DNA of 45,557 nucleotides from Chrysochromulina tobinii (GCA_001275005.1 JWZX01002916.1:1-45557), one strand, 5' to 3'; counted from the stretch's first letter, positions 1,165-39,100 are shown. Translations and numbers: made by a program. Notes: generated by a model not told the origin, from the letters alone.

Positions 1165-4100
1165 GTAGAGGAGCAGCCCCGGCTTGTAATGCTGCTCGGA
1201 GCACACGGCGGCGACCGAGGCCCAGTCGCCCCCCAAGACGGCGCCATCGACGGAGTGCACCCAGCCGCCGAGCGCCGGATCGAAGGCGAAGGAGGCACAG
1301 GCGCCGACGCCGTGTTGGGCGTGTTGGGAGCTGCAGAGCACGCCGCGCAGCGTGGCGGTCGCCGGTTGCGGCGCCGACTTGAAGGCGTGTTGCATGTCGA
1401 TGGAGGTGGGCAGAGCCCGGAGGAGCTGGTGGACGACCGGCGGGGCGGGCGGGACCGTCTCCCAGCTGAGGCCGACGGGCAGCAGCCCGGGCATGGGCTG
1501 CATCAGGTAGCGTAAGATCTGCATGCGGTTGCCGCAATTGTACGTGGGGCAGAGCGGCCCGGCCGAGGAGGCGAGCTGTGACGTGAGCGCGCCCGCGGCG
1601 GTTGCGGGGCCCGAGGCGAGCTGTTGCAGCAGCAGGGGGACGGACACGTAGGCGGTCGACTGCCTATAATGGAGCGGCTCGAGCATCTCATCGCATGTAC
1701 ACTCACACATCTCCATGATCGACATGGAGAAGTGGTGCTCAACGCACGAGACGAAACGCTGGTCGGCAGACTCGGTGAAGAGTCCGACGAGCGCTTCGAA
1801 CGCCTCCCCTACGTCCGATGCGCCGCTCAGCTTCAAGCGCGCGCCGTCGACGACCATCGAGGGCAGGTGGCTGCGCAGTCCTTGCGGGCTCGAGAGCGCT
1901 GTGCTCGACTGGGCGAGCGCCCGCATGGCGCCCTGCAGCCCGACGACGAGCGCATCCGACGTGGGCGCGATGCGGAGCACTTGCGCTTTGAATGAGTCGA
2001 GCTGGCAGAGGAGCGGCAGGCAGGCGCAGAGGAAGGAGGTCGCGTCGATGGGTACGGTCGGCTCGGACGCGCCGTGTTGGGCGCCACTTTCGGAGGAGAG
2101 CTGACTCTTGAAGGAGCCGTTGGAGCTGCCGTGGGCGCTGCCGCCCATGCCCATCTCGCTCATCTGCATCTGCAGCGCCTCGAGTTGGCTCGCCGTATAG
2201 GGTGCCCTCGTGACGAGGGCGTCACCCATACCGCCGGCGCCCATCATGGCGCTGCTCGCGCCCGTGCCCATCATGGCGCCCGTGCATGACGAGGGCGGCA
2301 GCGGCGGCATGATGGCGTGCTGCTGCGAGCCGCCCATGCCACCCTGCCCGCCGCCGCCCATGCCCCCGCCGCCCATGCCCCCGCCGCCCATGCCGCCCGA
2401 GTAGCTGGGCAGCGGCGGCATCCCCGGCTGCTGCTGGCCGCCCATGCCCATCTGTCGAGCGCCGCCCATACCCATGCTGCCGGCACCGCCGGCGCCGCCC
2501 TGGCCAGCCATGCCCCCTCCGAGATTCATGCCGAGATTCGTGCCAGCCATGGCCCCTCCCATGTTGTTGTTGGGGCCGCCGCCGAGATTCATGCCGAGAT
2601 TCGAGCCGAGATTCGTCGGGCCGCCGATGCCAGCACCTGCCATCATACTACCGCCGAGATTCGCGCCGAGATTAGCGCCTGCCATCATACTACCGCCGCC
2701 CGACAGGTTGCCATGGAGCCCTCCGGCGCCGCCCATGCTGCCGGCGCCGCCCATGTCGCCGGCGCCGCCCGGGCCGCCCGCGCCGGCGGGCTGGCCCGGC
2801 TGCACGCCGAAGCTGATGCCGTTGCCGTCGAGGTCGGCGGGCATCGCGCCACGCATGAAGGCAGGGTTGATCTGAACCGGCGAGCCCAGGATGAGCACCT
2901 CGCTGCGCTGGAGCGCCGCCGAAGCCGAGGCGGGGCGTAGGAAGCGGCAGAAGGCATGGAGGGCGAGGCCGTCGGGGGGCATGCGCACGCGCCGCTGCTT
3001 GAACTTGGCGCCCTGTCGATGGAATTTGATGCCCCCGGGCGCGAGCTCCCCGAAGACGAGCAGCGCCTCGGCAACCTGAAGCTCGGACGCATGGCTCGGC
3101 ACGCGCATGAGCATCACCGTGAATGGGCAGATGCGTCGCTCGTTGGCTGACACCGGCCCGTAGACCTTGGCGCCCGGGCGTGACGTATTGCACCGGTTGC
3201 ACTTGTCGCGGAAGGCGAAGTTGATGTTTCCGCAGTTGGCGCACTTCCAGTCACCGGTCGCTGAGCCGGGCCCCTGGCCCGGCAGCATGCCCGGCTGCAC
3301 CATGTAGCCGCCGCCGCCGTAGCCCTGCGAAGGCATCATCGGCTCTGTGTTCCGCCGCTTGGCCTCGTTGGCGCGCATCACCCACGCGTCAGCACCGCGC
3401 ACCAGGCCCCCGGGCGACCCAGGGCGACCGCCCGTCGCGTTGCCGGTCGCGCCCGGACTCGTTGCGCGCTCGCCCGCCGCGCCGGCGCCTTGGCCCACCA
3501 CGGCGCCCTGGCCCTGGCGCTGCTGCATCACCCGCAGCAGCTGGTTCTGAAGCGACTGCTCCGCCTGGCCAACACGCTGCGGGCACGAGATGGGGGCGAG
3601 CTGCACGTGCAGGCAGCGCCAGCCGCCCGCGTGCCCGAGCGGGATGGTGCGCACGTTGCAGTTGGCGAGCAGCCGCAGCGCCTGCGTCTGCCTCTGCTCG
3701 TCGGTGAGCATGAAGAGGCCGTTGAACTCGCCCGGGGAGGCTCCATGCTTGACGCGCCGCATGTTGGGGAAGCGCATCGCGAACGACTGCAGGTGCTCCG
3801 GCTTCAGGTGCAGCACGCCGCCGATGAGCAGCGCACACTGCGCGCCGCACGCCTGGAACTCGGCGTTGTAGCTCCAGAACTCGTCGCACCTGATGAGGGA
3901 GGCCATCAGAGGACATGAGCAGAGGACACGAGCATGCACTCAGACGCACTCCGCTCCAGAACTCGTCGCACATGTGGAGGCCCAGATCGAGCGCCATCTC
4001 AGCAGGGCAATCGTGGAGATCGATCAGGGCAATCATGGAGATCTATCAGGTCAATCGCGGAGATCGATCAGGGCAATCATGGAGATCTATCAGCGCAATC

Positions 4101-4808
4101 ATGGAGATCTACATGTGGTTGCCCTGATCGAGCGCCATCTCGGACAGCCAACGGCCACAAAACTCGCACACGATCGGCTGAGGCGAGTGCGGCACGTGGC
4201 CACCGTGGCCGCCGTGGCCGTGCCCCATGGGCCCGCCGTTGGCGCCGCCGCCGCCGCCGTGGTGGAGGTGGCCACAGCCCGCGTGGCCCCCCTGGTGCGC
4301 GCCCGGCCGGCCGCCGCCGCCGCCGAAACTGGCGCCCGGCATGGCGCCCGGCATGCCACCGTGCATGTTGAAGCCCTGCTGAGGCATCCCGGGAGAGGAC
4401 ATGCCGCCCTGTGGGGAAACGCCCTGTGGGGAAACGCCCTGAGGGCCGCCCTCGAAGCCCTTCGGAGGCAGCGGCGGCTGCTGCCCATACGGCCCGTGCT
4501 GCTGTGGGGAAACGCCCTGTGGGGAAACGCCCTGTGGGGAATGCCCATACGGCCCGTGCTGCGTGCCCATTCCGCCTTGCTGCGTGCCCATGCCGCCTTG
4601 CTGCGTGCCCATGACGCCTTGCTGCGTGCCCATGCCGCCTTGCTGCGTGCCCATGCCGCCTTGCTGCGTGCCCATGCCGCCTTGCTGATGAGGGCCGCCC
4701 ATGCGCCCCTGTTGAGCGTGTGCGCCACCGCACATGCCCCCCCCCATGCCGTTGTGAAAGCCAGCCCCTGCGCCCATGACCTGCAGCTGGCCGCCTTGGC
4801 CACTCGAG

Positions 4809-4851
<43 letters not shown>

Positions 4852-8928: not shown

Positions 8929-8957
8929 GACGCCGAGCACAATGAAGGAGCGGTCCG

Positions 8958-9440: not shown

Positions 9441-9505
9441 CAAGCGGTACGTGTACTCGCACTCGCTGCTCGGTTCTACTGTGAACGTGAATTGTTTCCG
9501 GCTCG

Positions 9506-12500
9506 ATGCGGGAAGCCTGCCCCATCGGGCTCAGCCGCTCCATTTGGCTGCCCGATCCCGAGCAGCTTGATCACTTTCTGGGCAGCGGCATCTGGCCAGC
9601 CGCCTTCGTCCTGGGCGACGAGCTGCTCGCCCGTCCGGCATCGTGGCTCGCGGGCTTGACCATCGTCGAGCTGGGGGCGGGGGCGATCGGGTACCCGGGG
9701 CTAGTGGCCGCGCTGCGCGGCGGGCCGGGCACGCACGTGTTCCTCACGGACAAGCACGAAGGGCTTGTTGCTCGGCTGCGCGCGAGCGTCGAAGCGAATG
9801 GTCTGGCGTCACAGTGCGACGCGCGCGTGTATGAGTGGGGCGAAGGATCTGAAGTGCTGATGCAGAGCCTGCCGGGTCCGCCGGACCTGATCCTCGCGTC
9901 CGACTGCCTGTACACGCACGGCTCGACCGGCGCCTTTTGCGACGCGCTGGATGAGCTGTACACGCCCGGGACGACGCGTATCCTCGTGAGCGCAGAGGAG
10001 CGATGGAGTCGGCAGGAATGCATCGACATCTGCGCCGAGAAAGGTTGGCGCTTCACGCAGCTGGGCGGCGAGCGCCGTCCGAGTGCAGCCCACCTCGCGT
10101 GCGTCGAGAAGCGGATGCGCGAGATGGGCGAGGGCCGATGGTACGTGTACGAGGTGACTCGAGAGAGCGCTCAGGAGAGCGCTCGGCCGCACGGACTCCG
10201 GGAGTACTTGGGGTGCAAAGCGACCCGAGCCGAGCGAATGGAGGCGGAGGAGGCGCACAGCACAGCCGAGGCGGCTGAGGCATCCGAGGCGGACATTGTG
10301 TTCGGCGCGCAGAGCGTGGAAGCGACGCCCACTGCCCCGCCGCTCACGGCGCCAATCGCCGAGCCAATCGCCGAGCCGCGTGCCGACGCTCTGACGCTTT
10401 GGGTTCCGCCAACTGACTCGTCGACGATGGAGGCGGCGGCAGCGGCGGAGAGGGCGGCGGCGAAGGCGAGGGTGGTGGCGGCGAGGGCAGCGGCGGTGGC
10501 GCTGCGGGCAGAGGCGGTGGCAGAGCAGGAGAGGGCGGCGGCGAAGGCGAGGGTGGTGGCGGCGAGGGCAGCGGCGGTGGCGCTGCGGGCAGAGGCGGTG
10601 GCCGAGGCGGCACGCTCGATCGAAGTGGCCGTCGCCAGCTCGATCGAGACGAACGCCGTCGTCGACAATGGCGCCCATGACGACGCCCACGCGACCTCGT
10701 CCATGGCGAGCCTTCCGGACGCGCCGCTGCAGAGCAACAGCAGCGGTGCTCGCCTTCGGCTCGATTTGGGAGTCTCATTCGAAGATGCAGCGGGTCGGCT
10801 ACTCTCGTCACAGTTCTCGGAGACGTGCATGGAGTGGCTCAGCACAGCAGGCAGCTACAAGGCACTCAGTGCCTCCGACTGCGTGCTTCGTCAGATCGCT
10901 CCATGTGCCGCGTGCTTCGAGAACCATCTGGCAATCGCGCTGCCTGACTCGCCACCGCCGTTTGCGATCCGACCCCCCACCCAAAAGGTGCCTCCCTAGT
11001 CGATTGCATGCTGATTGCGATCCGCCCCCCACCCAAAAGGTGCCTCCCTAGTCGATTGCATGCTGATTGCGATCCGCCCCCCCACCCAAAAGGTGCCTCC
11101 CTAGTCGATTGCATGCTGATTGCCTCGGATGGCAAGCTGATTGGCACTGATTGCATGCTGATCGCCCTCCCCCCAACAGGTGCCTCCCTAGTCGATTGCA
11201 TGCTGATTGGCGCTGATTGCATGCTGATCGCCCTCCCCCCAACAGGTGCCCACGAAAGAGGAGGCCGCCTTGGGTAGTCGGACCGAAGTGCACCGGTTCG
11301 TGCTGCACGAGGGCATCGCCGAACAGATCAACACGGCGCTCAAGGAGGACGGCACGAGCCGCCTCGCCCACTGGCGCGCGCAGGTAATTGCGCTTTCTGG
11401 CGTCTGGCTGCCTCTCATGTCCTCTCATGGCGTCCCATAACCTCCCATTGCCTCTGATGACCTCTGATTGCCTCCCAGTGCCTCTGATGACCTCTGATGT
11501 CTCTCATGGCGTCCTATTGCCTCCCACTGCCTATCATTGCCTCTAATTGCCTCTCATTGCCTCTCTCATTGCCTCCAATGTCCATCATGGCGTCCCATGG
11601 CCTCTCATTGCCTCGCCATTTGGTGCGCGCAGCATGCGGACGGGAAAGGTATCCGTCGGAGTAACGTGGGCGGTTTCCATTCGGAAGAGGAGCGCTTCAA
11701 TCGTTCGTCCTCTGACTGGTACGGGCGCCTGTGCACAACCCTCACCCTCGCCCGATCCTCAACCCGAACCCTGACCCGAACCCTGACGAACCCTGACGAA
11801 CCTTGACGAGCCCTGACGAACCCTGACGAACTGTGACGAACCCTGACGAACCCTGACCCGATCCTCAACCCGAACCCTGACCCGAACCCTGACGCGAACC
11901 CTGACGAACCTTGACGAACCCTGACGAACCCTGACGAACCCTGACGAACCCTGACGAACCTTGACGAACCCTGACGCGAACCCTGACGAACCCTGACGAA
12001 CCCTGACGAACCCTGACGAACCTTGACGAACCCTGACGAACCCTGACCCGAACCCCAACCCTACGGTCGAAAGGTACGGGCGCGTGCACAACGTGCTTCT
12101 CGAGGCGCTGCTGATGCTGGAGAACGATCACAAGCACGAGGGCGAGAAGGAGAGTGCGCAGGCCGGCGAGCAGTGTGACGTGCGCCGTGACGAGCAGGGT
12201 GACGAGCGCCGTGGCGAGCAGGGTGACGAGCTGGGCGGCGCGACGGCGGCTGTGAAGACGGCTGTGAAGACGGCGGCCGGCGAGGCGGCTGCACGGCGAG
12301 TACCCGCCGCGCCGACCTACTCGCCCGTGGCCCAGATGCGTGTGAGCGGCTGGATGAATATCTCAAGCGCGCACGACTTCAACACGCTGCACGACCATGG
12401 CGAAGCGCTCTGGGCGGCGGTGTACTTTGTGGAAGCCGACGACCATGCCTTGATGGTGCTGGATGCAGGAGCGGCCGTGTACTCGGGGGCTTTGCTGCTC

Positions 12501-23174: not shown

Positions 23175-26100
23175 TCAGGGCTTCGCGTCCTCCGCCTCCA
23201 CCTTCCGCTTGCGCGTGGATCCACCTCCCGGCGGCTTCGCAGAGGGTCCGGACGGGGCGCTGTCGTGAGCGTTCGAGAGGTCGCCTGGTCCGCCATTGGC
23301 CAATTTCGTCATTCGTCGTTGGCCCGTCTCGTCGCCGATTTCGTCAATAGCCTCCCGCGCGCTCACGACAGCGCCCGGGTCCTCCGCGTTGGGCGCCGTC
23401 TTGGGCGCCGGCCGCTTGCGCGGCTTTTTTTCGGGCGGCGCCGCGCCACTCTCATCCGCGGGGGCTGCTGCCGTACCGTCGGCCGCGCCCTTTGGCGCGC
23501 CGCTGGCCGCGCGCTTGCCCTTGGAGGGCGGGGCGGGCGGCAGCTCACCTTTGGCAGCTCCTTCGCACGTGGCGGCGGACTTGAGCAAGCGAGTGAGCAC
23601 GTCACGGAAGAGCGCCGTTCCGAGCACCGCCTCGATCGGACGCGGCCCGCCGCCGGGGAGGCCAACGGCCGGCCCAGCGGTCGGTGGGTAGTCCCACTCC
23701 CATTCATCTTCGTCGGTGACCCATTCTCGCTTCGAGTAGCCGTCAAGAAGCACCTGTGAAGGGAGGTCAAGGCGCCGTGGTGAGCGTTTGGGGAGGTAAT
23801 GGCGCCGTGGTGAGCGTTTGCATGCAAGGCGGGCGCGCATCGGGCACGAGAAGCCGTCGAGGAGTACCTTGAGGCCGCGTTTGGTATCGACGCTCTCGAC
23901 GACGCCGCCGTAGGGCACCGGGACGCCCTCCTCGTTGTAGTAGATGCGCAGGCGCATGCCGACCGCCTGCTTGCGGCTCACCCCGTGCAAGCCGACGACG
24001 ACGAGGTCCTTCTCGGCGCTCGCGACGGCGCTCGCGTGCTCGGCGGCACCCGCCGGAGCGCCGTGGTGAGCGCCCTCGGCGGCGCCACGCGTGGCGACGG
24101 CGGCAGGCGGCGCCACCGTGGGCGGCGGCGGAGCGCCGTGGTGAGCGCCGGGGCGCATGGCGTAGGCGCCGTGATGAGCGGCGGCGGCGGCGTGGCTCGC
24201 GGCGTGCAGGCTCGTCGCGAGCGGCGGCGGCATGGCGCTCATCACGGCGCTCAGCATCCCATTCGTCTCGAGCGGCGTCGTATTGGGCGCCCCGAACGGC
24301 GTCGTATTGGGCGCCCCGAGAGGCGTCGTATTGGGCGCCCCGAATGGCGTCGTACTGGGCGCCCCGAGAGGCGGGCGCTGAGGGTGCACCACCCGAGGGA
24401 GGGCATGCAACGGCGCTGCGCTGGCGTCGTACTGGGCGCCATTGAGGTGCGTCGTGCCGGGCGCGCCGAGGGTGGCGGGCAGCGGCTGTCGCGCCGGCTC
24501 GAGCGGGGGCGAGATCGGCAGCCCTTCGGAGCATAGGAGCGAGGCATGCGGCGCCGTGGCGAGCGCCTCGTAGCCATGGGGCGCCGTGGCGGGCGGTAGC
24601 GCCGTGGCGGGCAACGTGCGTTCGACGGCATCGAAGATGGCGTTGGCATCGATGGGAGTGGCGCCGTCCCGGGCAGGCAGTCCAGCGGCGCTGGCGGCGG
24701 CGGTGGCGGCGGCGGTGGCGGCGGACAGCGCGGTGGCGGTGGCCACACGCGCCGCGACAGGGATAGCGGCGGCGGCGGCGGCGGCGGCGGCGGGCAAGTG
24801 GTAGTAGAGGTTTGGTGTGAACTGCGGTGTGAAGCCGTGGATTGCATGCTGATTGCATGCTGATTGCGGCGGGAAGCCGTGGAAGGTTGGGTGCATCGGG
24901 ACGGCGCTGCCCAGGACGGCGCTGCCCAGGACGGCGCTGCCCGGCGGCGGAGGCTGCAGGACGGTGGGCGGCGGCGGCAGTGGAACCTGCTGGGAGCCCA
25001 GGACGGCGCTGCCCGGGACGGCGCTGCCCGGGACGGCGCTGCCCGGGACGGCGCTGCCCGGCGGCAGTGGAACCTGCTGGGAGCCTAATGGCAGCGGCTG
25101 CAGCAGCGGGTGGTGTTGCGTCGGCGGCGGAAGCCCGAGGGAGCCATCGTAGAGGCCGGAGCGCTGCGGCGGCGCTGTGGGGAAAGGCTGGCACGCCGTG
25201 CTCGCTGTGGGCGCGTCGAGCGAGGGCTGCGAGGGGAGTGCCGGTGAGGGGAATGGTGCCGAGCTCGCAAGGGGAGCGTACTCGGAGATCAGCTTGGTGA
25301 GCAGCCCGCGCAGCGTGGCGCCCTCGTCGAAGGCAATGCCGACCTTGTCCATCGCCTCGAGCGCCTCGCCGAGCACCACCGGGCCCGCATAGTGCGTCAA
25401 CGCTCGGTGCACCGTCTTGAGCGCCGCCTCAGCCTTGGCGAGGTGCGCGAGCAGCTGGTTCCACAGCGCGCCACTCACGCGCAGCTTGGCCCCCTCGCGC
25501 TGCACGCGAAGCAACTCGCCCATCGGCGGGCGCCCTCCCGTGCGCTGCCACTGCGCCGGCGCCGGAGCGCCGTTCTGGGCGGACGCGCCGTTCTGGGCAG
25601 ACGCGCCGTTCTGGGCGCCCCGCTGCGCCGGAGCGCCGCCGGCCGCGCCCGTCGCGCCGTTCTGGGCGCCGGCCGCGGCGGCGGCGGCGGCGGCCGCGCA
25701 GCCGTCGAGGAGGGTGTGTGCCTGCCGCCCCCACGCGACCACCTGTGGGGAAAGGGGGAAGGGCGCCGTGATGAGCACTTGCATGCAGGGAGGGGGGGAG
25801 GGTGTGTGCCTGCCGCCCCCACGCGACCACCTTGGCCGAGTAGTCGCGAAGGGGACCCATCGAAGGGAGCGCCATGTTGAGCGCCTCGCCCTTGGCGAGC
25901 AGCTGCTCGAGGCGGCTCGGGTCAGAGTCGGTCTGGCCACTCATGCACTGCGCGGCCTCGCCCTCCCAGGCCTTGGCCTCGAGCAGCCGCTCGTGCGCGT
26001 GCGTCAGCTCGGCGAGCACAGCCGCCTTCTCGGCCGCGAGCCACGTCGCCTCCAGCTGCGGATCCAAGCGGCGCCTCGGCGCGGCCGGCGCGCCTGGCTC

Positions 26101-29100
26101 GCCCATTACAGCGCCCACGCCCAATACAGCGCCGTTGGCCTCGGCGGGCTCGGGCGCTGTGTTGGGCGTAGGCGCTGTATTGGGCGCTGCCGCCATCGGC
26201 GCGTCGTCGCCGAGCAATGCGGCGGCGGCCTGCAAGGCTGCGCTGCGTGCCGCCTGCATCGCCGCCGCAGCGGCCGCCGCAGTCGCCGCAACTCCCCCGA
26301 GCGGTGCAGCTGCGCCGCCCCCCTTTTTGGAACCCCTTGGTGCGGGGGCACTACCGCTGCCGCTGCTACCGCTGCCGCTGCCGCTACCAAGGGCCTCCTC
26401 GATCGCGCTGCTCACGCCGCCCGCCCTCGCAGAGCTCAGCAGCTCTTCGAGGCTCTGGAGGGACACCGTCGAGGTGCCCACGGCGGCGCTCGCTGCGGCG
26501 CTCGCGGCGGCGCTCGCGGCTGCGGTTGCCGGCACGCCCGGCGTTGTCGTGGGCACCTCGCCGCCCAATACAGCGCCGTCCAATACAGCGCCGGACGCCG
26601 TCGTGGGCACCTCGCCGACCGCAACGGCACCGCCTGCCGTCGGCGGCGCGGGCGGCGGCGCGGCTGGGGCGGGCGGCGGCGGAGGCGGGCGCAGCTGGCG
26701 TGCCCACCGCCATCCTTTGAGCAGCGCGACCAGATCGCACTCGAGTCGAAAGCGTTCGCCTTCTTCGAGCCATCGGCACAGCTCCTCGTTCGTGACGCCA
26801 CCGCCCACCGCGTGCCCGACGTGCCCTCTGGGGCCGGGGGGCACGCCCAATACAGCGCCCGCATGCGGGGCATGGCGCGCCGTATTGGGCACGACCGTCC
26901 GTCGATACGATTCGAGCAGCGTGGGCAGCAGCTCGAGCTGCCACGTGGACACGTTGGTGACCGCCTTTTCGAGCAGCTCAGCCTCCTCGATGCGCACCTG
27001 ATGAGGGATCCAATCAGCACGCACTCAGCATGCACTTTGAATGCACTTTGGATGCACTTTGCATGCAATCAGAGCTCCAAAGTGTATGCATTCAGCAGCT
27101 CGGCCTCCTGGCGGCGCACCCGTAGCTTGGCCACCTTGCGCACGTGCTGCTCCGCCTTGTGCACGCTCGGCAGCCGCTTGATCTGCGGCGCGGTCACGCG
27201 CGGCTCGAATGGGAAGTTCACGCCGCGCTGTTCACAGCACCTTGGGCAGTGGAACGTGGCCGTGGCGCCCTCGGCTGTGAACTGCTTCGACTTGGCAGGC
27301 GAGATGCCGAGGCAGGTGATGTGGTACCACCCCTGGCATCCTTCGCACTCGATCATGGTGACGCCTGACGAACCCCAACGTGACGAACCCCAAGGCGCGC
27401 GGCCCATCAGTCGCACTCCATCGCAATCAACGAACCCCAACGTGACGAACCCCAAGGCGCGCGGCCCATCAGTCGCACTCCATCGCAATCAACGAACCCC
27501 AACGTGACGAACCCCTAGGCGCGCGGCCCATCAGCCGCACTCCATCGCAATCAGTGGCTGCCATCCGCGGCACGCACCGGACGAACCCCAAGGCTGGCGG
27601 CACACGCAGTAGATGGCCTCGCCGTCGCTCTCGAGGATCTCATGGAGGGTCGACATCTGGATGGCCGCGTGCTTGAACATGGAGCGCGTCTCCTCTAGCC
27701 ACCCCTGCCCACCCGCCTCGCGCTCCTTGAGCCCATCGACCTTGTCGGAGAGCAGATGGATCTTAGTGTACTGCTTCACACACTTGGCGAGCTCGTCGAG
27801 CGTCGCCGTGGGCGCCTGCAGCGCGTCCGCGGCCGCGAGCCACGTCTCGGCGTCGCTCATCTGGCGCTCAAGCAACGACTGCTCAGGCATGAGCACGTGT
27901 AGCTGCTGCCCCTGGATCGCGAGCTCGCGCATCTCGGCGAGCGCCACCTGATGAGGGAGGCAATCAGAGGTCATCAGGGCGAGGAGCACCTGATGAGGGA
28001 GGCAATCAGAGGTCATCAGAGGCAATCAGAGGTCGTCTCGGCGAGCGCTACCTTGTCGGTCGTGAGGACCCGCTCAGCGCGCGCCCTCCACTCGCCGGCC
28101 TGCTGCAGCGTCTGCTGCAGCGCCGCCCACTCGGCCGCCGCGCTGCGCCACTCGGCGCGGCCGCGCGCGCCGTCGTGCGCTTCTGCTGTGGCCTCCGCGC
28201 TGGGCGTCGTGGTGGGCGCGGCCGTGGCGCTCGGCTCGGCCCCCCTCTCTCCCTCGGTCGCGGCCGCCATCGTGGCCGGCGAGCTGGCGCTCGCACCGCT
28301 GCCCAGGGCCGCCTCGGCGCGCCGCGGCTCGCCGCCACCAACACGATCGGCGTCCGCGCCTGTCTCAGCCCCGGCGGCGGCGCCCAACTCGGCGCCCAGC
28401 TCGCACGGGGTTTCGTCAAGGCCGAGCGCGCGCCCCTGCTCGAGCAGCGGCGCCATCTCGTCCAGCTGCCCGCCGCCCTCCTCCTCCTGACGAAACTTGA
28501 CCTCCTGCCGCCACGAGCGCAGCCGGAGCGTCGTGGCCATCCCCACAGCGACCGAGAGCGCCTCCGATTCGCGCAGCAGCTCGCGGAGCCTCTCTCGGGC
28601 CGCCGCCGTGCCCGCTACCGCCCTCCGCGCTGTCCCGAGCGCGCCCCCCCGCCGCGCCGGCGGCCACGCCCTCTTCGCCGTCGTCGGCGGCTCCACCTCC
28701 ATCGGTGTCGGCTGCCCATTGGCGTGCGCCGGCGCGCCGTCCGGCGCTCGGGACGGCGCGCCGTCCGGCGCTCGGGACGGCGCTCTATCCGGCGGCGCCG
28801 ATGTGGCCTCTTCACACTTGGCCTCTTCACACTCGGCCAGGGCCGCTTCGGCGCGGGCTGTCCAGCTCTCGGCATCGCGCAGCTGCGCCGCAAGGGCGTA
28901 CACCTCGGGCAGCGTGATCGGGAGCGCCTGCCCCGCCTCGTACAGGCGCAGCGCTTCGTCAAATGAGGCGCGCGTCGCGACGCCGCGCGTCGAGCGTGCG
29001 TTGAGCGATCGGCGGCACTGCTCGAGCCACGCCTTGGCGTCGGCGACGGACTGGCGGAGCGTTTCCATGGGTTCCATTGAGACGCCATCCGCGTCGGCTT

Positions 29101-31783
29101 CGGACAGGAGCGCGGCGGCGTCCTTGATCGTCGGCTTGCCCTTGAGCTCCGCGTCCAGGCGCACCGCCCACGCGCGCGCCGTCTCGAGCTTGGCGACCAG
29201 CAACTTGGTCGTCTCGGCCGGCATCGTGCCACTCTTGCCGACGAGCTCCTCGAGGTCCTCGATCGTCGCGGGGCCCTCGAGCGCGAGCGCCGCCTGGCCG
29301 CGCCACGCATCCCCCGCTTGCTGATCGGAGACCAGCTTGACCTCGGGCAGCTCGATGCCCTTGGCCCTGGCCTCCTTGACGAGCGCCATGAGCTCCTGCA
29401 TCACATCCATTGTCGAATTGTGAGCGGTCATCAGTGGTCATCAGTGGTCATCAGTGGTCATCAGTGGTCATCAGCGGTCATCAGCGGTCATCAGCGGTCA
29501 TCAGCGGTCATCAGCGGTCATCAGTTGCACTCACCTGCCACTCGGCATTCGACTCCATCGCCGCCTTGGCGCGCTGCAGCCAGCCACGTACGGTGCCCAG
29601 CCGGCCGTCAAGCACCTCCTGCTCGGCAAGGTTGAGGTTGAGCTCCTCAGCACCAGTACTCAGCTCGTCGAGCAGCTTGAGCACCGTCGGCGTCACTGGG
29701 ACGGGCGGCACCAGCAGCGCCCGCGCATCCTCGGACCACTTGCGCGCCATGTCGAGACGGTCGCGCACCTGTGGGGAGGGGAGAGGGCGTCGTGGTGAGC
29801 ACTTGCATGCCCTCCCGCGCCATGTCGAGACGGTCGCGCACCTGGGTGATCTCGACCGCGTCAAGGCGCAGCGTGGCTGCCTCACCGAGCAGCCCCTCGA
29901 CGACGGCGACCGAAAGGCGAGCGCCTGAGGCTTTGCGAGACGACGTCCGCCGGAGCAGCTCATTGTTGACCGTCGTCATCCACTTTTTGCACGCCGCCGT
30001 GCGATCGCGCAGCACGTCGGCCTCGGGCACCTTGATCCGCAGAGCCTCGGCCTCGCGCTGCAGGTCCTGCAGCTCGCGCAGCTCGCAGCTCGCCTTGAGC
30101 ATCACTTCGCGCGTGCCAGCGAGCCAGGCGTCGACGCGCCGCAGTCGGCCGCGCACCTCTTCGACCTCGGCCAGCCGCAGAGGAATGCGCTCCCCCTCAG
30201 CCAGCAGCGCCTGCAGGCCCTCCGTCGTCTGCGGGCGGGCGAGCTGCTCGGCACAGCGCGCCTGCCACGACGCGCCGTGCTGGAGCGCCTCACTGAGCAT
30301 CGCGAGGCGCCCCGTCGAGCCCGTCGAGCCGAGGTACTTTAGGATGTGGCGGTTGAGGTCCGCCCCTCGGTCGGGCAGGCCATGCGCTTCACGCAGCTGC
30401 TTCACACTTCGACCAAGCTTGTGCGCCGCCGCGCCGTCGTGCACGAGCTTCTCGAGCTCCTTGATCTTGAGCACCGCGCCACCGCGAGATTGAGATTGAG
30501 ATTGAGATCTCAACGACCCTTGGGGCTCGTCGTCCGGCGCAGCCGGCGCCGCGCCGGCGCCGGCGCCGGGCTCCGCGGCAGAAGGCTGAGCCGCGCCCGC
30601 TTGCGCGTCTTGGCTGCTCCCGAGGAGCGCGTCCACTTGCGCGCTCCACTCGCTCACCGCCACGCGCACCGCCTCGGCCTGCTGTCGCTCGTGCGTCTCG
30701 AGCAGCGCGGCCGCGGCCGCCTCGTCCTCGCTGCCGCGGCCGAGCGCGGCGAGCGAGGTGGGCAGCGTGCCACTGACCGCGTCGGCGATGCCAGGCGCGA
30801 GCACGTTGGGGAGGAGCAGAAAGGCAGAGGCGTGCGCGGCGCCCACCACCGCGAGCAGCGCCTCGCCAGCCGCGTGCCCGAGTGCCTGCAGCTGCGCCGC
30901 CGACTCGTCCGGCAGCGCGCCCAACCACTGCTTGGCAAGGAGCAGGGCCGCCTTGGCCCTGGGCAGCGAGTAGCCACTCAGGTGCAGGTGCGTCATCAGG
31001 TACTCGGCGAAGAAGGCGTCGGACAGCGTCGCGCTCTCCACCAGCCGGTGTGCGAAAGCGAGCAGCTCGCACAGCGCCTCTTCGGCACAGCCTTCGGGCA
31101 CCCAAGCAAGAGAGCCCGCGCCGACGGCCAGGGGCTTCTCGGCCGGGTCGCGCTCCGCGCGAAGCATCGTGGGCGCGATCTGGTACTTGGTCGCGTCGAC
31201 GCGCGCGGGCTTACGCGGCATGCCACGCTCCGCGTTCTCGTGGCTCTGGTTGGCCTCGGCGAGGAGCTCCGCTTCCGTCTTCTTCTTACGCTTACCTTGA
31301 CTGTGCGCCGGGCAGGCCCACTCGCCCTCGGGCGCCACGTCGAGCGGCGGGTCGACGCAGTGCAGGTGGTACGAGCGGTCGCACCGATCACACAGGATCA
31401 GCTCGCCACTCGAGCCGCACTTGAAGCAAAAGTCGTCGTTCGTGTCCTCGGGCTCGTCAGCTGGCGGCGCGGCCGGCAGGCTGGAGGAGGAGGAGGAGCC
31501 GCCACCCTTGCCCGACGACGGTTTGCTGCCACTGTCCCATGCCGATGCTGCGATGGGGAGCACGCAGCGCGTCAGCACGCTCGATGGTCAGGCGAATACG
31601 CAGGGAGAACGCGCCGCGGGGCTGTGGCTGTGCCTGGCGGCGCTCGCGGGCTGGACAGAGAGAGGAATGGTTGGTGCCACGCGCACCCTGGATGGCTTTC
31701 GCGGCGAAGTCATCGTCACCGCTGAACCCACGGTATGGTACCAGCCTGGCACAGGTAGGATAAGCCAGGCCATTGGTGGCCAT
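23175..31783 (-). CDS. Large chromatin protein: PHD, ELM2-like, PLU-1-like helical repeats, second PHD, low-complexity region, Tudor-like domain. Exons 31783-31687, 31547-29842, 29768-29535, 29395-28052, 27947-27578, 27364-27120, 26997-25831, 25742-23868, 23753-23175
   Basis: PHD1 CFKCGSSGELILCDRCDRSYHLHCVDPPLDVAPEGEWACP. ELM2-like RVDATKYQI..EYLMTHLHLSGYSLPRAKAAL. Repeated L..L..EA..L....PE...L......W motifs as in KDM5 PLU-1. PHD2 YCVCRQP..MIECEGCQGWYHITC..FHCPRC appears only after splicing. All eight GT-AG introns restore or keep the frame. Confidence 0.8.
23754..23867 (-). mobile_element. Introner-like intron (114 nt, in frame) with diverged exon duplicate and internally duplicated cassette
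   Basis: 23847-23869 matches 23733-23755 at 19/23. Core TGCATGCAAACGCTCACCACGGCGCC...TTCACAG. Confidence 0.75.
25743..25830 (-). mobile_element. Introner-like intron (88 nt): cassette flanked by a perfect 36-nt direct repeat
   Basis: 25709-25744 equals 25797-25832. AAG|GTGGTC ... CCCCACAG|GTGGTC joins ORFs 25429..27024 and 23175..25940. Confidence 0.85.
26998..27119 (-). other. Intron (122 nt) starting with a diverged copy of the downstream exon
   Basis: The first 27 nt match the downstream exon at 22/27 (VRRQEAELL vs VRIEEAELL). Filler is GATTGCATGC/AAAGTGCAT; acceptor is CCCTCATCAG. Confidence 0.8.
27365..27577 (-). other. Intron (213 nt) with a ~62-nt tandem repeat x3; acceptor copied from the upstream exon end
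   Basis: G|GTGCGT donor. TTGGGGTTCGTCAG acceptor resembles exon end TTGGGGTTCGTCCG. Repeat period is 62 (27381, 27443, 27505). Splicing rebuilds the PHD finger. Confidence 0.85.
27948..28051 (-). other. Intron (104 nt) with 18-nt exon duplicate and internal AG|GT
   Basis: 28036-28053 matches 27932-27949 at 17/18. Two CTGATTGCCTCCCTCATCAG acceptors, at 27990 and 27948. Confidence 0.82.
29396..29534 (-). other. Intron (139 nt) filled with (CTGATGACCR)~10
   Basis: CAG|GTGAGT ... ATGCAG|GAG, phase 0. Tandem 10-mers at 29424-29524. Confidence 0.8.
29769..29841 (-). mobile_element. Introner-like intron (73 nt): cassette flanked by a perfect 29-nt direct repeat
   Basis: 29743-29771 equals 29816-29844. 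Core GCATGCAAGTGCTCACCACGACGCCCTCTCCCCTCCCCACAG. Removal restores the frame. Confidence 0.85.
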
Positions 31784-31951: not shown

Positions 31952-34176
31952 ATGCCCCCCACGGACGACGAGTTGCTCGCAAGCAACCCGGATGCAGCCA
32001 TGTTAATCGCAGCCGGCGCGCCACGCAAGGAGGTCCTCCAGAACCTTCGCATGACCGCTGAGACGTCTGGTCCACTCAAAGGCGTGATCATGCGCGCCGA
32101 CCGCTCGCGCTTCGCCTCGTCGGTGCTCCCGCTCGGTGCCTTCCACATCTCCGCCGTCGCGGCGCTCGGCATGCCGCTCGCCGACGGCGCTCTCGGTCTG
32201 CTGCTGCTGCTGCTGTTGCTCGTCGTGCACCGCATGCTCTGGGTGCGCCTGGTGCCGCCGATGGTCTTGGCGGCCGAGCCTCCGCCGCTCCTTGGGGCGC
32301 CGACGTCGCTCTCCACCGCAGTCTTCCTCGCCGCCGCCTCGCTCGCAGTCTCGCTGCTCTCCCCTGCGGGCTCCATCATCGGTGGCAGCATGAGCGCCGT
32401 GCTCGCCGCTTGCGCCGTCACCGCGGCCGTCGTCGCCTCGGGCCAGCCTACCGACCAAGCTGCCGCCACCTCAGCCCCATCGCTGCTGCCGCCCCTCGTC
32501 CCCGCGCTGCCTTCGTGGCTCGTGCGCGGCGCGGGCGCGCTCATCGTCACTCTCGTCGCGTCACTCTCGTCCCTAGGCTACCACGGCGTGATACGCGCGA
32601 GCTGCCCCGCCGCTGCCGCCACGAGCCCGTGCGCCGCCGCGGCGTCGCACACGCCTCTCGTGGCCGCATGGGCCATGCTCGTCGGCCTCGTCGTCGCGCT
32701 CGAGCACTCGCTCGAGCGCGCCGAGGGGCCGCAACCGCCACCGAGCCGCTCGGATCGCTCGGATCGGGCTGACTTGCGGTTGCTCACTATGTACCAGCCC
32801 GGACCGGCGGTGCTTCCGAGCCGATCGGACGCGTGGCCGCTCATCGGGCAACAGCTGTGGCTGCGGCTTCGGCCGCTGCTTCCCGCGGCCCTCTCCGGTG
32901 CAGCGGCACGCGCTTGCCAGCTGGCGATCGGGGCGACGCTTGCGGCGTGGCTCGCGCCGTCGGCGGTTGACTCGCTAGGCGCTCTCGCTCTCGCGCTCAG
33001 CGGCGGCTGCACGCCCTGCGCCGCACCGGCGGCCGAGGAGCTCTCCATGGGCGACGCGCCGGGCAGCGAGGCGGCCGCGTCCGCCGCGTCCGCCGCGTCC
33101 GCCGCGTCCGCCGCTGGCCTCGGGCTTTGGTTCTCGATGCTGCTGCGCAGCTGGGCCTTCGTCGCCTCATGCCGGCTCGGATTCAGCGCCGTGCACGTGG
33201 CGTACACGCAGCCACTTGATTTCCGACGTGCCTCGGCGTCTCCGCTCGGCGACGAGAAGGTCCTCATGGCGGCCATGGCCAAGGAGGCGCCGCCCCTCAC
33301 GCAGCACCTCGCCTACCTAGACGCGGTCACTCTCGCTCGACACGAGCCCGCGCGACGCCAAGCGCTCTTCTTGTTCAATGGGGGCGCCGCGTGGCACGGC
33401 TTCCTCGAGCTCCTTCTCAAGCCCATCGACGTGATGGCGGCTAATCTGAAGGCGCGCAAGGCCCGCGCAGTTCAAGAAAAGGCGCGCGCTCCAAACGGCA
33501 CCTCCATTCACACCTCCATGCACACCTCCATGCACGCCTCCGCCCTTCCGAAAGGCTCGCTGCCCCTGCTTGCAAGTGCTCACCACGGCGCCCGCCCCAC
33601 CCTCTCCCCCCACAGGCCGCCGTTCCCAAAGGCTCGCTGCCCCTCGCTCTGCGACGTCTGACCGCGCGGCTAACCGCCATGCGTGCGGCGATGGACGAGC
33701 AGGCGGCACGGAGCTTGATCCTTGGCTCGACGCAGCTCGTCGTGTGGGCCGCTGAGGCCTCGAGCTGCCTGCTCGCCGCCGCGTTGATAGAGGACCAGGC
33801 GGGCGTCGTGCACAAGAAGGGATCGCTCAGAACGGCGCTTGCCTCGCTCGCGAGCTGCCTGCAAGCTCTGGAGGCGTTCACGGCGGGCGGCGGCGCGCCA
33901 CTCGGCGGCGCGCGCACGCGCCAGCCCGCCGCGCAGCAGGCCATCGCGCTGCGTGTAGGCGAACGCAGCGGACCCGCGCAAGACCGCGCTCAGAACGACG
34001 CTCATCGAGCGGAGGCCGTCAAGGGTGCAATCAGCCGCGCGCTCTTTCTGCTCATGCAGACGTATGGCTACCGCGCCATCGCCATCGAGGCGGCGCACTT
34101 GCCCGAGGAGCAGAGGCAGCGGCTCCAGGCATTCTTGCGCGAAGCGGGTATGCTGATCATAAATCATCATCCCTAA
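31952..34176 (+). CDS. NDC1: Nucleoporin NDC1 (TMEM48)-like membrane protein. Exons 31952-33481 and 33616-34176
   Basis: Several N-terminal TM segments, then QHLAYLD....EPARRQALF and VWAAEASSCLLAAALIEDQAGVV (Ndc1 ED.xGVV motif). A GC-AG intron joins ORFs 31421.. and 33679.. in frame. Confidence 0.75.
33482..33615 (+). mobile_element. GC-AG introner-like intron (134 nt) with cassette preceded by a 28-nt copy of the downstream exon
   Basis: AAG|GCGCGC donor. 33540-33567 matches 33617-33644 at 26/28. Core TGCTTGCAAGTGCTCACCACGGCGCCC...CCCCACAG. Confidence 0.7.
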
Positions 34177-36154: not shown

Positions 36155-39100
36155 ATGCCGGCGGCGCGGGTCGGCATCAGCACCCGCGAGCATCACGGCT
36201 CGGATGCGAGCCCAGCGCCGCCCAAGAAGCAGCAGATGACCGACCTCACGCTCTGCTTCAGCCTTTGCTCGCTCTTTGACTTCGACAAGTCCGGCATGGT
36301 CACGCAAGAGGACTGGATCCGTGGCATGCAATGCCTCATGCTCGACGATCTGGGCAACGACCCGAAGATGTGGGCCAAAATGACCGAGATGCATGGCGTC
36401 CGCGACGGCGGCAAGGCCATGGTCGACGTGAACCGCCTCGCAGACATCGTGCCCATCGACCCTCGAGTGGCGGTGCTGCTCAATGCCGTCGTCAAGGGTC
36501 TAGTGGGCATGCGCGACTTTGTCGAGCGCTCATTCCGTAAGGAGACCAAGGAGGCGGAGGTGAAGCAATCGCGTGCGCTGATCAACATCCGCCGGCGCAT
36601 CATGCATCCCGTGCTCCATGCATGGAAAACGTACGTCACGCAAAACAAGAACCTGCTCCGAAAGAGCGCCGGCCAGGGACTGTTTTACAAGCAGCACAAG
36701 GCGTTTCGGCAGTGGAAGTACGCGCGTGAACTCTGCATCGAGGAGAGGCTCGAGGCGCGTCGGCAGGCGCGCCAGAACAAGAAGCTCGCCGCCGCCGCCG
36801 GCCGTTTCATGAACGCTAAGATGTCGATTGCATGGAACTCGTGGAAGGCGATGTATGTCGAGCGCAGAAAGATGCTCAAGATCTTCGGGAAGCTCAAGTA
36901 TCGGGCGGCCAGCTTGGCGTGGAACTCGTGCGTGGAACTCGTGCCGCCCCGCCGCGCCCGCGCCCGCGCTCACTACAGCGCCTCTACGCGCCTACGCCCA
37001 ATACAGCGCCTCTCACGCGCCTCCGCGCGCGCGCAGTCTCTGTTGCCTCGCCCCGCGTCCTGTGCTGTGCACGCCCCGCTCCTGCCATGGGAATGCTCTC
37101 GACCCTCTACCAGGGTGTAACCTGAGGGACAGAGTAGAGAGCTGTCACCCTCCATGGAGCCATGGGAATGCTCTCTACTCTGCGCTCGCACCCTCCTGCG
37201 GCGGACTACTCTGGGAATGCTCTCTGCACTGCCCTCACCTCCTCCGGCTCGCCACGGCCTGCATGCAAGTGCTCACCACGGCGCCCATGTGCTCGCCACG
37301 GCCCTGCCCTCGTTGCAGATGGCTCGAATTGCTCGCCGAACGCGACCGCATGAAGCGCTTCTTCCGGCGACTGATGAACATGGAGCTCGCTCGTAGCTTT
37401 TCAAGCTGGCTCTCTCACCTCGACGACCTCGCCGAGCAGGCGCGACTGATTGGCTCTGATTGCGTCTGATTGCGTCTGATTGCGTCTGATTGCGTCTGAT
37501 TGCGTCTCTGAGTGCATGCTGACGACCTTGCGCGAGGAGCGAGCCAAATCGAGCGCGACGCTGTGATCGCCTCTGAGTGCTTCTAATTGCCTCTGAGTGC
37601 TTCTAATTGCCTCTAATTGCTTCTAATTGCCTCTAATTGCTTCTAATTGCCTCTAATTGCCTCTCATTAGGCGCGCGAGGAGCGTTCCAAATCGAGCGTG
37701 GTGCGCCGCTTCCTACTCAAGGACGTGGGGCGGGCGCTCAACCACTGGACGGGGCTGTGGCGCGAGAGGCAGCGCTTCAAGCTCATCGGCCGCCGGATGG
37801 GCTTCGACGGCGGCCTCTCGCGTGCCTGGCGCCAGTGGGAGTACCAAGCCGCGGACGATCAGAGGCGCAAGGGGATCATCGGCCGCTTCGCCAACGTGGG
37901 CCTCACGCGAGCGCTCAATCGATGGCTCGAGTCGCTGGAGGAGCGGCGGCTGATGCGCCATTTCCTCAAGCGCGCGATGAACGGTGGGCTCGCGCGCGCG
38001 TTGACGAGCTGGTACGAGACGATGCATCAAGGTGCGTTGCCGCCGCCCCTTGGGCTCCGCACCCGTCTGGAAGGGGTGCCACCTCCGTCTGGAAGGGGTG
38101 CCTCCTCGAAGGTCTGGAAGGGGCCTCCTCGAAGGTCTGGAAGGGGTGCCTCCTCGAAGGTCTGGAAGGGGTGCCTCCTCGAAGGTCTGGAAGGGGCCTC
38201 CTCGAAGGTCTGGAAGGGGCCTCCTCGAAGGTCTGGAAGGGGTGCCTCCTCGAAGGTCTGGAAGGGGCCTCCTCCGATCCTCATTCATTCGACCGTCCGC
38301 GCGCGCCGCCGCTTGTCGTGCCCGCTCACGCCCTCCACGCACCGCCCCTCTCCCCGTCTTCTCCCCGCCCCGCACAGCCAAAAAAGACCATGCGCGACTC
38401 GCGCGCTTCGGCGCCAAGTTCCTCAAGCTCAGAGAGTTGCGCGCTTGGAACTGCTGGCTCGGCCTGCTCGAGGAGCGCGCTCGCCTGAAGGTGGTGGCGC
38501 GGCGCATGATGCAGGTCGGGGTAGTGAGGGCCATCAACCAGTGGTGTGCGTACCTCGACGGGCAGGAAAGGTGAGCGTCGCGTGTTCCTCTGCCCTCGGT
38601 TCCTCCCTCTGTGTGGTGCTCATCCTCTCTCTCTCCCTCTGTGCGGTGCTCGCCGCCGCCTGTCTCGTTGTCGCGTAGGCTACGCGGCCTCGCCACCCGC
38701 TTCACCAACTCGCCGACGGTCAAGGCGTTCAACTCATGGGTGGCGGTGCTCGGAGAGCTGCGCAAGCTGCGCGGCCTCTTCGGGCGCGCCCTCGACGGTC
38801 GGCTCTCGCGCGCCTTCAACCAATGGCTCAACTCGAACTACTCAATCAATCAGCTCGCCAAGTTTGGCGCGCGCATGGCGAATGCCGTCGCCCTACGCGC
38901 CTGGAATCAGTGGATCCACGTCTGCGCCGAAATAGGTCGGTTACGTGTCTTTGGCCGACGCATGCTCATGCAGGCGGCGAGCAAGGCCATCAACACATGG
39001 GTCGAGTTCGTCGACGAGCAGGCGCGCCTTCGTCGCTTTGGGCTGCGGCTACTCCACAGGAACGTCATCAAGGCGCTCAACACATGGGAGGTCGAGGCGG

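Follow-up and report, generated by a model that had tools for sequence, protein, structure and literature searches.

The stretch of DNA analysed here (hereafter referred to as the window) comprises 45,557 nucleotides of Chrysochromulina tobinii (GCA_001275005.1 JWZX01002916.1:1-45557), probably a Prymnesiales-like haptophyte, and includes a glucosidase II beta-like gene, a PLU-1/PHD gene and a GH123-like gene. Removal of the inferred introns yields uninterrupted frames in seven of seven genes, and many of the introns contain a copy of the exon sequence adjoining them (Table 1).

Table 1. Introns and related features of the window
Feature	Coordinates	Strand	Organisation
Intron, 223 nt	3890..4112	-	internal copy of the spliced junction between two fillers
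Intron, 258 nt	10988..11245	+	tandem units across exon end and donor; internal 26-nt exon copy
Intron, 249 nt	11384..11632	+	CTAATTGC/CTGATGAC array; short upstream-exon-end copy as acceptor
Intron, 355 nt	11719..12073	+	downstream-exon-start copy as donor; CCCTGACGAA array
Intron, 144 nt	17816..17959	+	own donor, filler, two upstream-exon-end copies, the last as acceptor
Intron, 168 nt, GH123-like gene	20045..20212	+	14-nt copy as donor; CCCTGATTGCGT array, motif
Intron, 79 nt, glucosidase II beta-like gene	21533..21611	+	perfect 29-nt copy of downstream exon start as GT donor
Filler of the 21533 intron, 50 nt	21562-21611	+	branch-point motif, pyrimidine tract, AG
Intron, 114 nt	23754..23867	-	21-nt copy (4 mismatches) as donor; doubled motif filler
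In-frame insertion, 42 nt, in minus-strand PLU-1/PHD coding sequence	24831..24882	+	10-nt duplication around TGCATGCTGAT filler
Intron, 88 nt, PLU-1/PHD gene	25743..25830	-	perfect 34-nt exon copy as donor, and 50-nt filler
Intron, 122 nt	26998..27119	-	26-nt copy (4 mismatches) as donor, and filler
Intron, 213 nt	27365..27577	-	upstream-exon-end copies, one adjoining acceptor AG; 62-nt internal tandem units
Intron, 104 nt	27948..28051	-	16-nt copy as donor; CTGATTGC/CTGATGAC filler, internally repeated
Intron, 139 nt	29396..29534	-	CTGATGAC-array filler, without exon copy
Intron, 73 nt	29769..29841	-	perfect 26-nt copy as donor, and motif filler
GC-AG intron, 134 nt	33482..33615	+	internal 28-nt exon copy, 5' of motif
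Intron, 391 nt	36928..37318	+	11-15-nt tandem copy across donor; motif near 3' end
GC-AG intron, 231 nt	37440..37670	+	two filler arrays flanking an internal 26-nt exon copy

A preliminary description of this DNA had listed about 16 introns as copying the adjoining exon. Duplicates of the end of the upstream exon or of the start of the downstream one, as judged by ungapped score, were sought in 24 inferred window introns and found in all 16 listed introns and in none of the eight others, three of which have boundaries off by 1-2 nt. A score of at least 8 was reached by 16/16 listed introns and by 24 of 552 mismatched intron/exon controls, and a score of at least 10 by 14/16 and 2/552, respectively. 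The start of the copy coincides exactly with the donor in eight introns (11719, 20045, 21533, 23754, 25743, 26998, 27948, 29769), and its end lies at the acceptor AG or 2 nt before it in three (11384, 17816, 27365). In the remaining five (3890, 10988, 33482, 36928, 37440) the copy is internal, and these copies are later additions rather than a source of splice sites. Thus, all 16 coordinates of the preliminary description are borne out, as are its short, variable duplications (given as about 12-36 nt, measured here as 10-34 nt), the lack of terminal inverted repeats, none being found at these introns, and, on the evidence of the frames opened by splicing at the predicted sites, the apparent scarless restoration of the coding sequence; its statement that the copy usually supplies the donor or the acceptor holds for 11 introns and fails for the five with internal copies.

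The motif GCATGCAAGTGCTCAYCACGGCGCC occurs seven times in the window and not once in 100 shuffles. The 50-nt fillers of the 25743 intron and of 21562-21611 are identical, although they lie 4.2 kb apart in unrelated genes on opposite strands. The junction copy within the 3890 intron joins 29 nt of the upstream exon to 19 nt of the downstream exon, and the filler at 24831-24882 is antisense to its host gene. No RNA family matched the window in an Rfam scan at the gathering threshold.

Homologous proteins and the ends of RNA contigs speak for the predicted spliced junctions. Six RNA contigs stop matching within 6 nt of predicted intron boundaries yet continue with further sequence; contigs of X12 and X15 start at 17954 with additional letters (17816 intron), and X15 contigs stop at 10985 (10988 intron) and at 3887 (3890 intron) and then continue. 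Among the RNA-contig joints listed over positions 3000-22900 (15 of 286), which were crowded with filler repeats of other loci, no true junction was present. The 20045 intron has no AG at its acceptor in the window, which carries an extra letter at 20211. Since DNA run X1 is without this letter, giving a CAG acceptor, and a strain protein reads ...PPQ/VAG across the junction (slash at the splice site), the missing AG is probably an assembly error or a variant. That the introns as a whole are assembly artefacts is exceedingly improbable. Repeats are difficult to assemble and single-letter differences between the window and X1 do fall inside the 20045 intron; however, the same introns recur with strain SNPs in independent assemblies (contig L020, which also has the 36928 and 37440 introns, and other pairs; P0085, P0001-P0004, P0045), an X1 DNA contig covers 3000-4044 without differences from the window, and the exon copies carry mismatches.

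A survey of 130 loci from metagenomes, which together with the window contain 287 copies of the same 25-nt branch-point motif, extends this anatomy; the part shared between introns is only 25-55 nt long. A copy of the downstream exon was found within 150 nt of the acceptor at 133 of 192 motif-bearing acceptors, or 126 of 184 with orthologues removed, as compared to 0.5% of shuffled pairs and 3/186 same-locus distal controls. The copy begins with GT in 114 and with GC in 9 of the 133. In 98 clean cases it has a median length of 26 nt (range 10-44) within introns of 57-101 nt and is perfect in 41, while 91 different pyrimidine tails are present. The simple cases consist of the copy and a half-intron alone, with a gap of 0-10 nt in most. 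Complementarity of the termini averages 3.3-4.1 of 12 bases (maximum 8), which indicates that there are no terminal inverted repeats.

The motif copies are of several kinds. While 194/287 end precisely in ...CAG, the other 93 are without an acceptor of their own, and a local duplication flanks 58 of these (control 11/300). A mirror class carries the donor and the motif, its AG being that of a duplicated end of the upstream exon (L004, L038, L046, L091, L117), and L009 15493 and L070 958 are full-length, having donor, motif and acceptor alike. Among 64 classifiable internal copies, 53 are in sense and 11 run against the nearest intron marks; five antisense copies were confirmed (L129, L128, L056, L102, L041). 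The motif was found once in viral contigs and was not found in prokaryote genomes. Mismatches between copy and exon are not concentrated at third codon positions (3.9, 4.0 and 5.0% at positions 1-3), and a stable hairpin is unsupported (filler folding gives z 0.14 against shuffles, and among three whole introns one exceeded its shuffles). DNA repeated between loci (L007, L017, L039, L070 and others) represents, by visual inspection, proline-rich gene families and not transposons.

Several window introns are absent from relatives. P0005 and P0006 (76-77% identical; open frames of 4.9-7.3 kb contigs) read through the 27948 and 29396 introns and end in filler-like translation where the window has no intron; P0008 (46% identical) reads through 29396 and 29769, P0046, P0048, P0049 and P0050 read WLAE/V straight through the 20045 site, and P0086 reads through the junction peptide of the 21533 intron. 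A homologue search with 23181-25739 gave no match. Among strains, a 78-nt intron of L021 is scarlessly missing from L022 and an 81-nt intron of L061 from L011 and L033, with flanks 97.2-98.0% identical in both polymorphisms. The L061 intron has a perfect 33-nt copy and the filler of a neighbour 524 nt away. For the two polymorphisms, gain is argued from the perfect copy and the neighbour match rather than from an outgroup; a repeat-to-repeat deletion would be equally scarless.

These data may alternatively reflect older ordinary introns, in which later tandem duplication and gene conversion copied exon ends and homogenised neighbours, the empty alleles being precise losses. Tandem duplications are indeed common here, in exons as well (strain proteins differ by repeat units), five of the 16 window copies are internal, and P0005 begins at the 29769 acceptor, which suggests an intron common to the 77% relative. 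Such a history is nevertheless quite improbable, given that the simple cases contain nothing beyond the copy and the borrowed half-intron, that the sites are read through by relatives at three distances, that a different position in the 77% relative is occupied by a filler intron of its own and that the L061 intron is built as described above. The recent, scarless intron birth proposed in the preliminary description is supported by the read-through in relatives, the two strain-level cases and the statistics of the 130 loci.

The filler itself has local kin. The nearest filler lies in the same locus in 26 of 102 cases (permutation mean 2.3, maximum 9) and, in near-identical culture contigs alone, in 23 of 88 (2.9 expected, maximum 9), where the exons of close filler pairs are unrelated; for a second filler family the value is 18/81 (5.7 expected, maximum 16). 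The sequence from copy to motif is wholly explained by a same-locus mate in 6 of 45 introns (0.56 expected; maximum 3 in 500). Remnants of donors are also visible: L039 12534 holds the end of the exon copy from the L039 10000 intron and L052 728 that from the L052 2426 intron, each with 5 shared bases, L039 15824 and 17560 share 7 bases, and in L035 9123/7231 the copy takes in the upstream exon end of the donor. Microhomologies in six local donor/recipient cases are 0, 1, 2, 5, 7 and 12, the last being the L052 event viewed from the side of the donor; three of the six (0-2 nt) are no longer than chance; control matches from other loci reach up to 3 (n=58). Judging from these sequence relationships, the fillers were taken from other introns, for the most part nearby ones, and this source is new here. 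Near-identical fillers are also shared between different contigs (L015/L110; a 55-nt 5'-half family), which a master element would explain too.

As with introners in the broad sense, the introns share sequence at unrelated sites (287 motif copies in 130 loci and the window) and are present or absent in close relatives (L021/L022, L061/L011-L033, P0005/P0006). Similarity of whole elements with fixed boundaries was not found: the 5' gaps are variable, 91/98 tails differ, and 3'-half, 5'-half and cut copies occur. A classical introner would be a non-autonomous transposon of about 75 nt, mobilised by a transposase and hopping locally, its truncated and chimeric forms due to later decay. The full-length form, the near-identity of the 55-nt 5' half on several contigs and the introners published for a Chrysochromulina sp., whose duplications measure 4 bp and which have no inverted repeats (PMC9860276), are in keeping with it. 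The duplications, with a range of 10-44 nt and a median of 26, are by contrast not the fixed 3-9 bp of MITE-like introners, the ends are not fixed, terminal inverted repeats are absent, tails differ although 41 copies are still perfect, and fillers contain pieces of the exon copies of other introns. No transposase was present among the 26 window frames. For most cases the data already speak against such an origin, which is improbable overall.

Target-primed reverse transcription, in which a retroelement or a telomerase-like enzyme would nick the gene and reverse-transcribe the 3' end of either an intron RNA or some neighbouring transcript, with a second nick 10-45 nt away making the duplication, would account for the copy-filler-copy geometry, the precise ...CAG end of 194/287 motif matches, the long, variable target-site duplications without inverted repeats and the strong bias to sense and to the same gene; introners derived from non-LTR elements have been reported (PMC12130899). 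However, the combination of a fixed, tailed 3' end with variable 5' truncation that marks a SINE-like retrocopy is not seen, as 93/287 motif copies are without the acceptor end, 5'-half copies miss the 3' end, others are cut 5' of the AG and poly(A) tails are absent. In addition, the L035 copy includes the upstream exon end of its donor, antisense copies do not fit priming on the 3' end of an excised intron, and the window showed no reverse transcriptase among its 26 frames and no RNA family at the gathering threshold. We consider this route rather unlikely.

These introns combine 10-45 nt duplicated from the exon next to them with part of another intron, often one within a few kilobases. On balance it is probable, in our estimate, that they were born by repair synthesis with template switching, in which the synthesis departs from its template at a short microhomology, copies half of an existing intron and comes back slightly upstream of its point of departure. 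We count as established the duplication-plus-filler anatomy, the absence in relatives, the scarless empty alleles, the local filler kinship, the donor remnants with microhomology, both types of half-copy and the antisense copies. A staggered break or a slipped fork end would first extend 10-45 nt into the exon, anneal to another intron via 2-7 matching bases and copy about 40-60 nt, the template being DNA or possibly unspliced nascent RNA; re-annealing at the start of the new stretch would then leave that stretch doubled. In coding exons, the survivors would be those whose borrowed half contributes the branch point and a splice site, with the second splice site coming from the duplicated exon segment (a GT/GC that opens it or an AG that closes it), together with insertions staying in frame by chance. 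Each new intron may serve as the next template, so that the family would spread without fixed ends or a transposase, and extra rounds inside introns would generate nested copies and arrays. A candidate enzyme is one of the polymerase-theta or break-induced-replication type.

Templated insertions made by polymerase-theta end joining (TMEJ) or MMBIR are short copies of nearby sequence joined at microhomologies, in either orientation, with repeated rounds and tandem duplication. The introns described here resemble them in that the template is near the site and both orientations occur (five antisense motif copies and 24831-24882), and appear to share the repeated rounds and tandem duplication. At the switch points, one half of a small sample of six events has microhomologies of 5, 5 and 7 nt and the other half 0-2 nt. 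Against template switching stand the dominance of the sense orientation, the visible local donor in only 6 of 45 testable recipients and the pyrimidine tails that differ even within clear donor/recipient pairs. Staggered-break repair with templated filler, one of the options of the preliminary description, fits these observations, the filler being traceable to neighbouring introns; its other option, target-primed or telomerase-like addition, is a poorer fit, given that fillers lack a fixed end and can be traced in this way. For a possible telomere-repeat origin of the arrays, no paper was found.

Whether the system amounts to a transposon-free, self-propagating intron factory, with young introns in the genome, numbering of the order of ten thousand, that similarity-based introner screens have missed, is in our view evenly balanced. 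The break-repair model leaves open where the sequence of a new intron comes from, and in recent surveys transposons are held responsible for most of the intron gain now under way. If the proposed mechanism is true, intron density could run away through repair alone, gains clustered within single genes would have a mechanism, and screens based on whole-intron similarity would undercount intron bursts. As the young introns show both parents, the doubled exon and the lending intron, the birth order, the donor distance and the junction microhomology become readable for every intron of the genome; wild populations, moreover, contain polymorphic alleles.

In the literature covered, in which subscription journals are thinly represented, no description of the exon copy combined with a borrowed half-intron was found, nor, among the papers listed, any of polymerase-theta or MMBIR insertions as a mass source of introns. 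A parallel is provided by introners, including family 5 of Chrysochromulina sp. TARA_PON_109 from the same algal group, which likewise form many related introns, carry one splice site and take the other from the duplication, are spliced without a scar and in some cases have no inverted repeats (PMC9860276). They duplicate 3-9 bp of target (4 bp for family 5) and the elements are whole and similar throughout, in contrast to the ragged half-introns, long variable duplications and local donors found here. The view of the preliminary description that the mechanism differs from known introners is qualified by the existing description of introners that co-opt a splice site from a 4-bp duplication without inverted repeats. 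A 2025 survey assigned C. tobinii 0 introner families (PMC12130899).

The tandem genomic duplication model (PMC3443670) also derives splice sites from duplicated exon with the coding sequence unchanged; there the intron is the AGGT-containing duplicate itself, whereas here the duplicate gives one site and the branch point and other site are imported. Intron transposition by reverse splicing (Micromonas, Oikopleura, fungal ILEs) similarly makes introns from existing introns, but it inserts the whole intron (PMC3443670, PMC4540971) cleanly, in sense and without long duplication, unlike the partial copies, donor exon remnants and antisense copies seen here. With the repair of staggered double-strand breaks in Daphnia pulex (PMC4202315, cited in PMC4540971), new polymorphic introns lie between direct repeats of the adjacent exon end and young introns receive secondary nested insertions, as here. 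The Daphnia repeats measure 4-12 bp, and the inserted sequence is stated to be of unclear origin, whereas the repeats here are 10-44 nt and supply a splice site, and the insert can be traced to other introns, often neighbours.

The window is eukaryotic and dense in genes, with a GC content of 56-76% (63.4% is given for C. tobin in the available portion of PMC4580454), and its DNA is present in mixed-culture metagenomes and in six RNA runs. The closest named homologue of a window protein, at 52% identity, belongs to Prymnesium parvum, which suggests a Prymnesiales-like haptophyte as the host; a freshwater Chrysochromulina would be our own inference. Pfam matches to Hsp90, methyltransferase/2OG-Fe(II), VPS9, GH123, glucosidase II beta, PLU-1/PHD, acyl-CoA dehydrogenase and syntaxin 18 mark ordinary genes, and neither a reverse transcriptase nor a transposase was found by Pfam among the 26 window frames. 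The genes adjoining the three intron-free genes (Table) hold 4-8 introns each; the window introns are concentrated in certain genes, a pattern predicted by local copying.

Features of the window and of strain-specific loci
Feature	Position or locus	Strand	Remarks
Tandem array, ~39 nt units	880-1165		3' end of a minus-strand gene; possibly a minisatellite or a further filler-type intron
Hsp90 gene	6598-8931	-	intron-free
VPS9 gene	13166-14794	+	intron-free
Antisense in-frame filler, 14 codons	24831-24882		between 10-nt direct repeats, in PLU-1/PHD coding sequence
Intron with 27-31 nt tandem array	38032-38377		unrelated to both filler families; without exon copy
Syntaxin-18 gene	44086-45086	+	intron-free
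Strain-specific intron, 78 nt	L021 present, L022 empty		flanks 97.2% identical
Strain-specific intron, 81 nt, perfect 33-nt copy	L061 present, L033/L011 empty		flanks 98.0% identical

Sixteen window introns had been described as holding a copy of the adjoining exon, and such a copy was found in all 16 at a score of at least 8 and in 14 at a score of at least 10, against 24 and 2 of 552 mismatched intron/exon controls, respectively; the other window introns hold none (0/8). The preliminary description took the copy usually to supply the donor or the acceptor, which holds for the eight copies starting at the donor and the three ending at or adjoining the acceptor AG, and not for the five that are internal. 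Secondary duplication within old introns would cover these internal copies, but these alone, and is very unlikely to explain the system. Splicing was also said to restore the coding sequence; removal of the inferred introns leaves open frames in 7/7 genes, the longest of up to 2519 codons after removal of seven introns, and junction peptides are matched in relatives at 27948, 29396, 29769, 20045 and 21533. Six RNA contigs stop within 6 nt of predicted boundaries and continue with extra letters (3887, 10985, 17954 twice, 20212 twice); since the listed rows of the table of RNA-contig joints on the window held repeat noise alone, splicing at the predicted junctions is supported indirectly. GC donors occur at introns 33482 and 37440 and begin 9/133 donor-supplying copies among the matches listed in the 130 loci described below. 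Relative to the DNA run X1, the acceptor of intron 20045 carries one extra letter in the window, at 20211, by which the AG is lost and the intron left in frame. Three further single letters of the window, at 20092, 20103 and 20134, are missing from X1.

The 25-nt branch-point motif, used as a query, matched at least 133 stretches, giving 130 metagenome loci of 724 kb in all. As these were chosen by the motif, they provide no unbiased density; the seven motifs in the 45.6-kb window would extrapolate to roughly 9,000 per 59-Mb genome. Among the matches listed, the start of the downstream exon is copied just upstream of 133 of the 192 motif copies that lead into a pyrimidine tract and YAG (126/184 with orthologues removed), compared with 0.5% of shuffled pairs and 3/186 same-locus distal controls. 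The anatomy of exon copy plus filler, the filler being the rest of the intron with the branch point and the other splice site, appears to be genome-wide. The 106 simple cases minus eight internal tandem repeats form a clean set of 98, in which, among the matches listed, the median length is 26 nt (range 10-44) for the copy and 78 nt (57-101) for the intron, 41 copies are perfect, 91 different tails occur and, as the preliminary description had it, terminal inverted repeats are absent. The base preceding the copy is G in 83/106 and AG precedes in 44/106 (25% and 9% at random exonic GT), and a purine stands at +3 in 90% (50% at random exonic GT), again among the matches listed; the doubled stretch looks like a donor, via selection or via re-annealing on AG|GT. 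Copy/exon mismatches among the matches listed in the 130 loci are spread evenly across codon positions, which is what neutral decay of the copy would produce. A second filler family consists of CTGATTGC/CTGATGAC arrays ending CATCAG or ATTAG, with a copy in 63/133 acceptors among the matches listed (control 42/600).

Among the matches listed, 93/287 motif copies lack their own acceptor, and local duplications flank 58 of these 93 (control 11/300). A mirror class (loci L004, L038, L046, L091 and L117) comprises donor and motif, about 55 nt, the AG being supplied by 14-26 nt copied from the end of the upstream exon. A few full-length forms with both splice sites are found among the matches listed; a classical introner may be the ancestor of this form, but it does not fit most cases and is an improbable account of the whole. 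Five motif copies among the matches listed run antisense to the gene that holds them, and two of the five are in frame within coding sequence; sense prevails (53 sense versus at most 11 antisense among the matches listed). The copied piece has neither fixed ends nor a fixed strand. Under target-primed reverse transcription both the duplication and the predominance of sense copies would be accounted for, while the 5'-half, cut and antisense copies would stay unexplained, and we consider it unlikely, though less so than the introner. Near 10001 in locus L016 and in its orthologue L094, the motif, in sense orientation, is part of a coding sequence, apparently in frame; it has neither a pyrimidine tract nor a duplication and is possibly an exonised remnant. 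One viral-collection contig (L001, 1001-1025) carries motif and acceptor, which may be host contamination or belong to an intron of a virus infecting the alga.

The filler itself appears to derive from other introns, mostly neighbours, a point new with respect to the preliminary description. Introns 21533 and 25743 lie 4.2 kb from each other in two unrelated genes of opposite strand and have an identical 50-nt filler, although almost all other tails differ. Among the matches listed, 26/102 sites have their most similar filler within their own locus (permutation mean 2.3), as do 23/88 in the near-identical culture contigs alone, with unrelated exons (mean 2.9, maximum 9 in 500 permutations), and 18/81 in the second family (mean 5.7, maximum 16). 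At least 10 bases upstream of the motif are common to 9/435 same-locus and 22/20188 different-locus pairs among the matches listed, a 19-fold difference in which not all pairs are independent. The L039 12534 intron holds the end of an exon copy from an intron 2.5 kb off and the L052 728 intron that of L052 2426, each joined at 5 shared bases; L035 9123 contains the L035 7231 intron together with its exon end, and the strain-specific intron of L061 has the same filler as a neighbour 524 nt distant. A local donor mate is visible for only 6/45 testable recipients among the matches listed (0.56 expected); the six donor/recipient junctions overlap by 0, 1, 2, 5, 7 and 12 bases, and near-identical fillers also occur across different contigs.

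Recent intron birth, proposed earlier, is supported by relatives and strains: these introns have been gained, some very recently. In a relative 76-77% identical, open frames read through two window introns, and stop in filler-like translation where the window lacks an intron; a frame in a 46% identical relative reads through two window introns, and full-length single frames (contigs of 3.8-12.6 kb) read through the GH123 intron sites. Eighteen overlapping locus pairs were grouped and 14 different ones aligned; two of these show an intron in one strain alone (Table). At each empty site the doubled sequence stands once, without a scar; the empty alleles may instead be losses by deletion between the repeats. 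Insertions with non-intron filler between duplications separate L022 from L021 (30 nt), L011 from L033 (39 nt) and L020 from the window 34400 region (155 nt), one of them intergenic, suggesting the same process using other templates. At 28730-28800 and in proteins P0001-P0004, P0022 and P0028, exons vary between strains by in-frame tandem units of 5-8 residues, which suggests that short tandem duplications arise at a high background rate.

The long variable duplication, the ragged fragment, the near donors, the microhomology at some junctions and both orientations are most simply accounted for by template-switching repair synthesis and subsequent selection, a reading that is somewhat more likely than not. 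Repair synthesis would switch template, leaving a borrowed fragment and a long exon duplication; selection would keep products that splice or remain in frame, and each new intron would become a template for further copying.

The same structure is not described in the available portions of PMC11282704, PMC4580454 and PMC12480563, and no report of a long exon duplication joined to half of a neighbouring intron was found in the mostly open-access literature searched. The accessible part of the PMC12130899 supplement lists 0 introner families for C. tobinii. In the available text of the respective papers, the routes of intron gain reviewed include tandem duplication and the transposition of introns (PMC3443670), and introners are known in which a short duplication provides a splice site (PMC9860276). 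Daphnia neointrons, whose insert source is given as unknown, have exon repeats of 4-12 bp in the portions available (PMC4202315; PMC4540971), in contrast to the median of 26 nt (10-44) here. Similarly, an introner family of a marine Chrysochromulina sp., as far as the available part of PMC9860276 goes, shares the lack of terminal inverted repeats but has a 4-bp duplication, against 10-44 nt. The system is filed as a variant uniting three ideas already known; the odds are even that it should count as a transposon-free route to mass intron gain in its own right.
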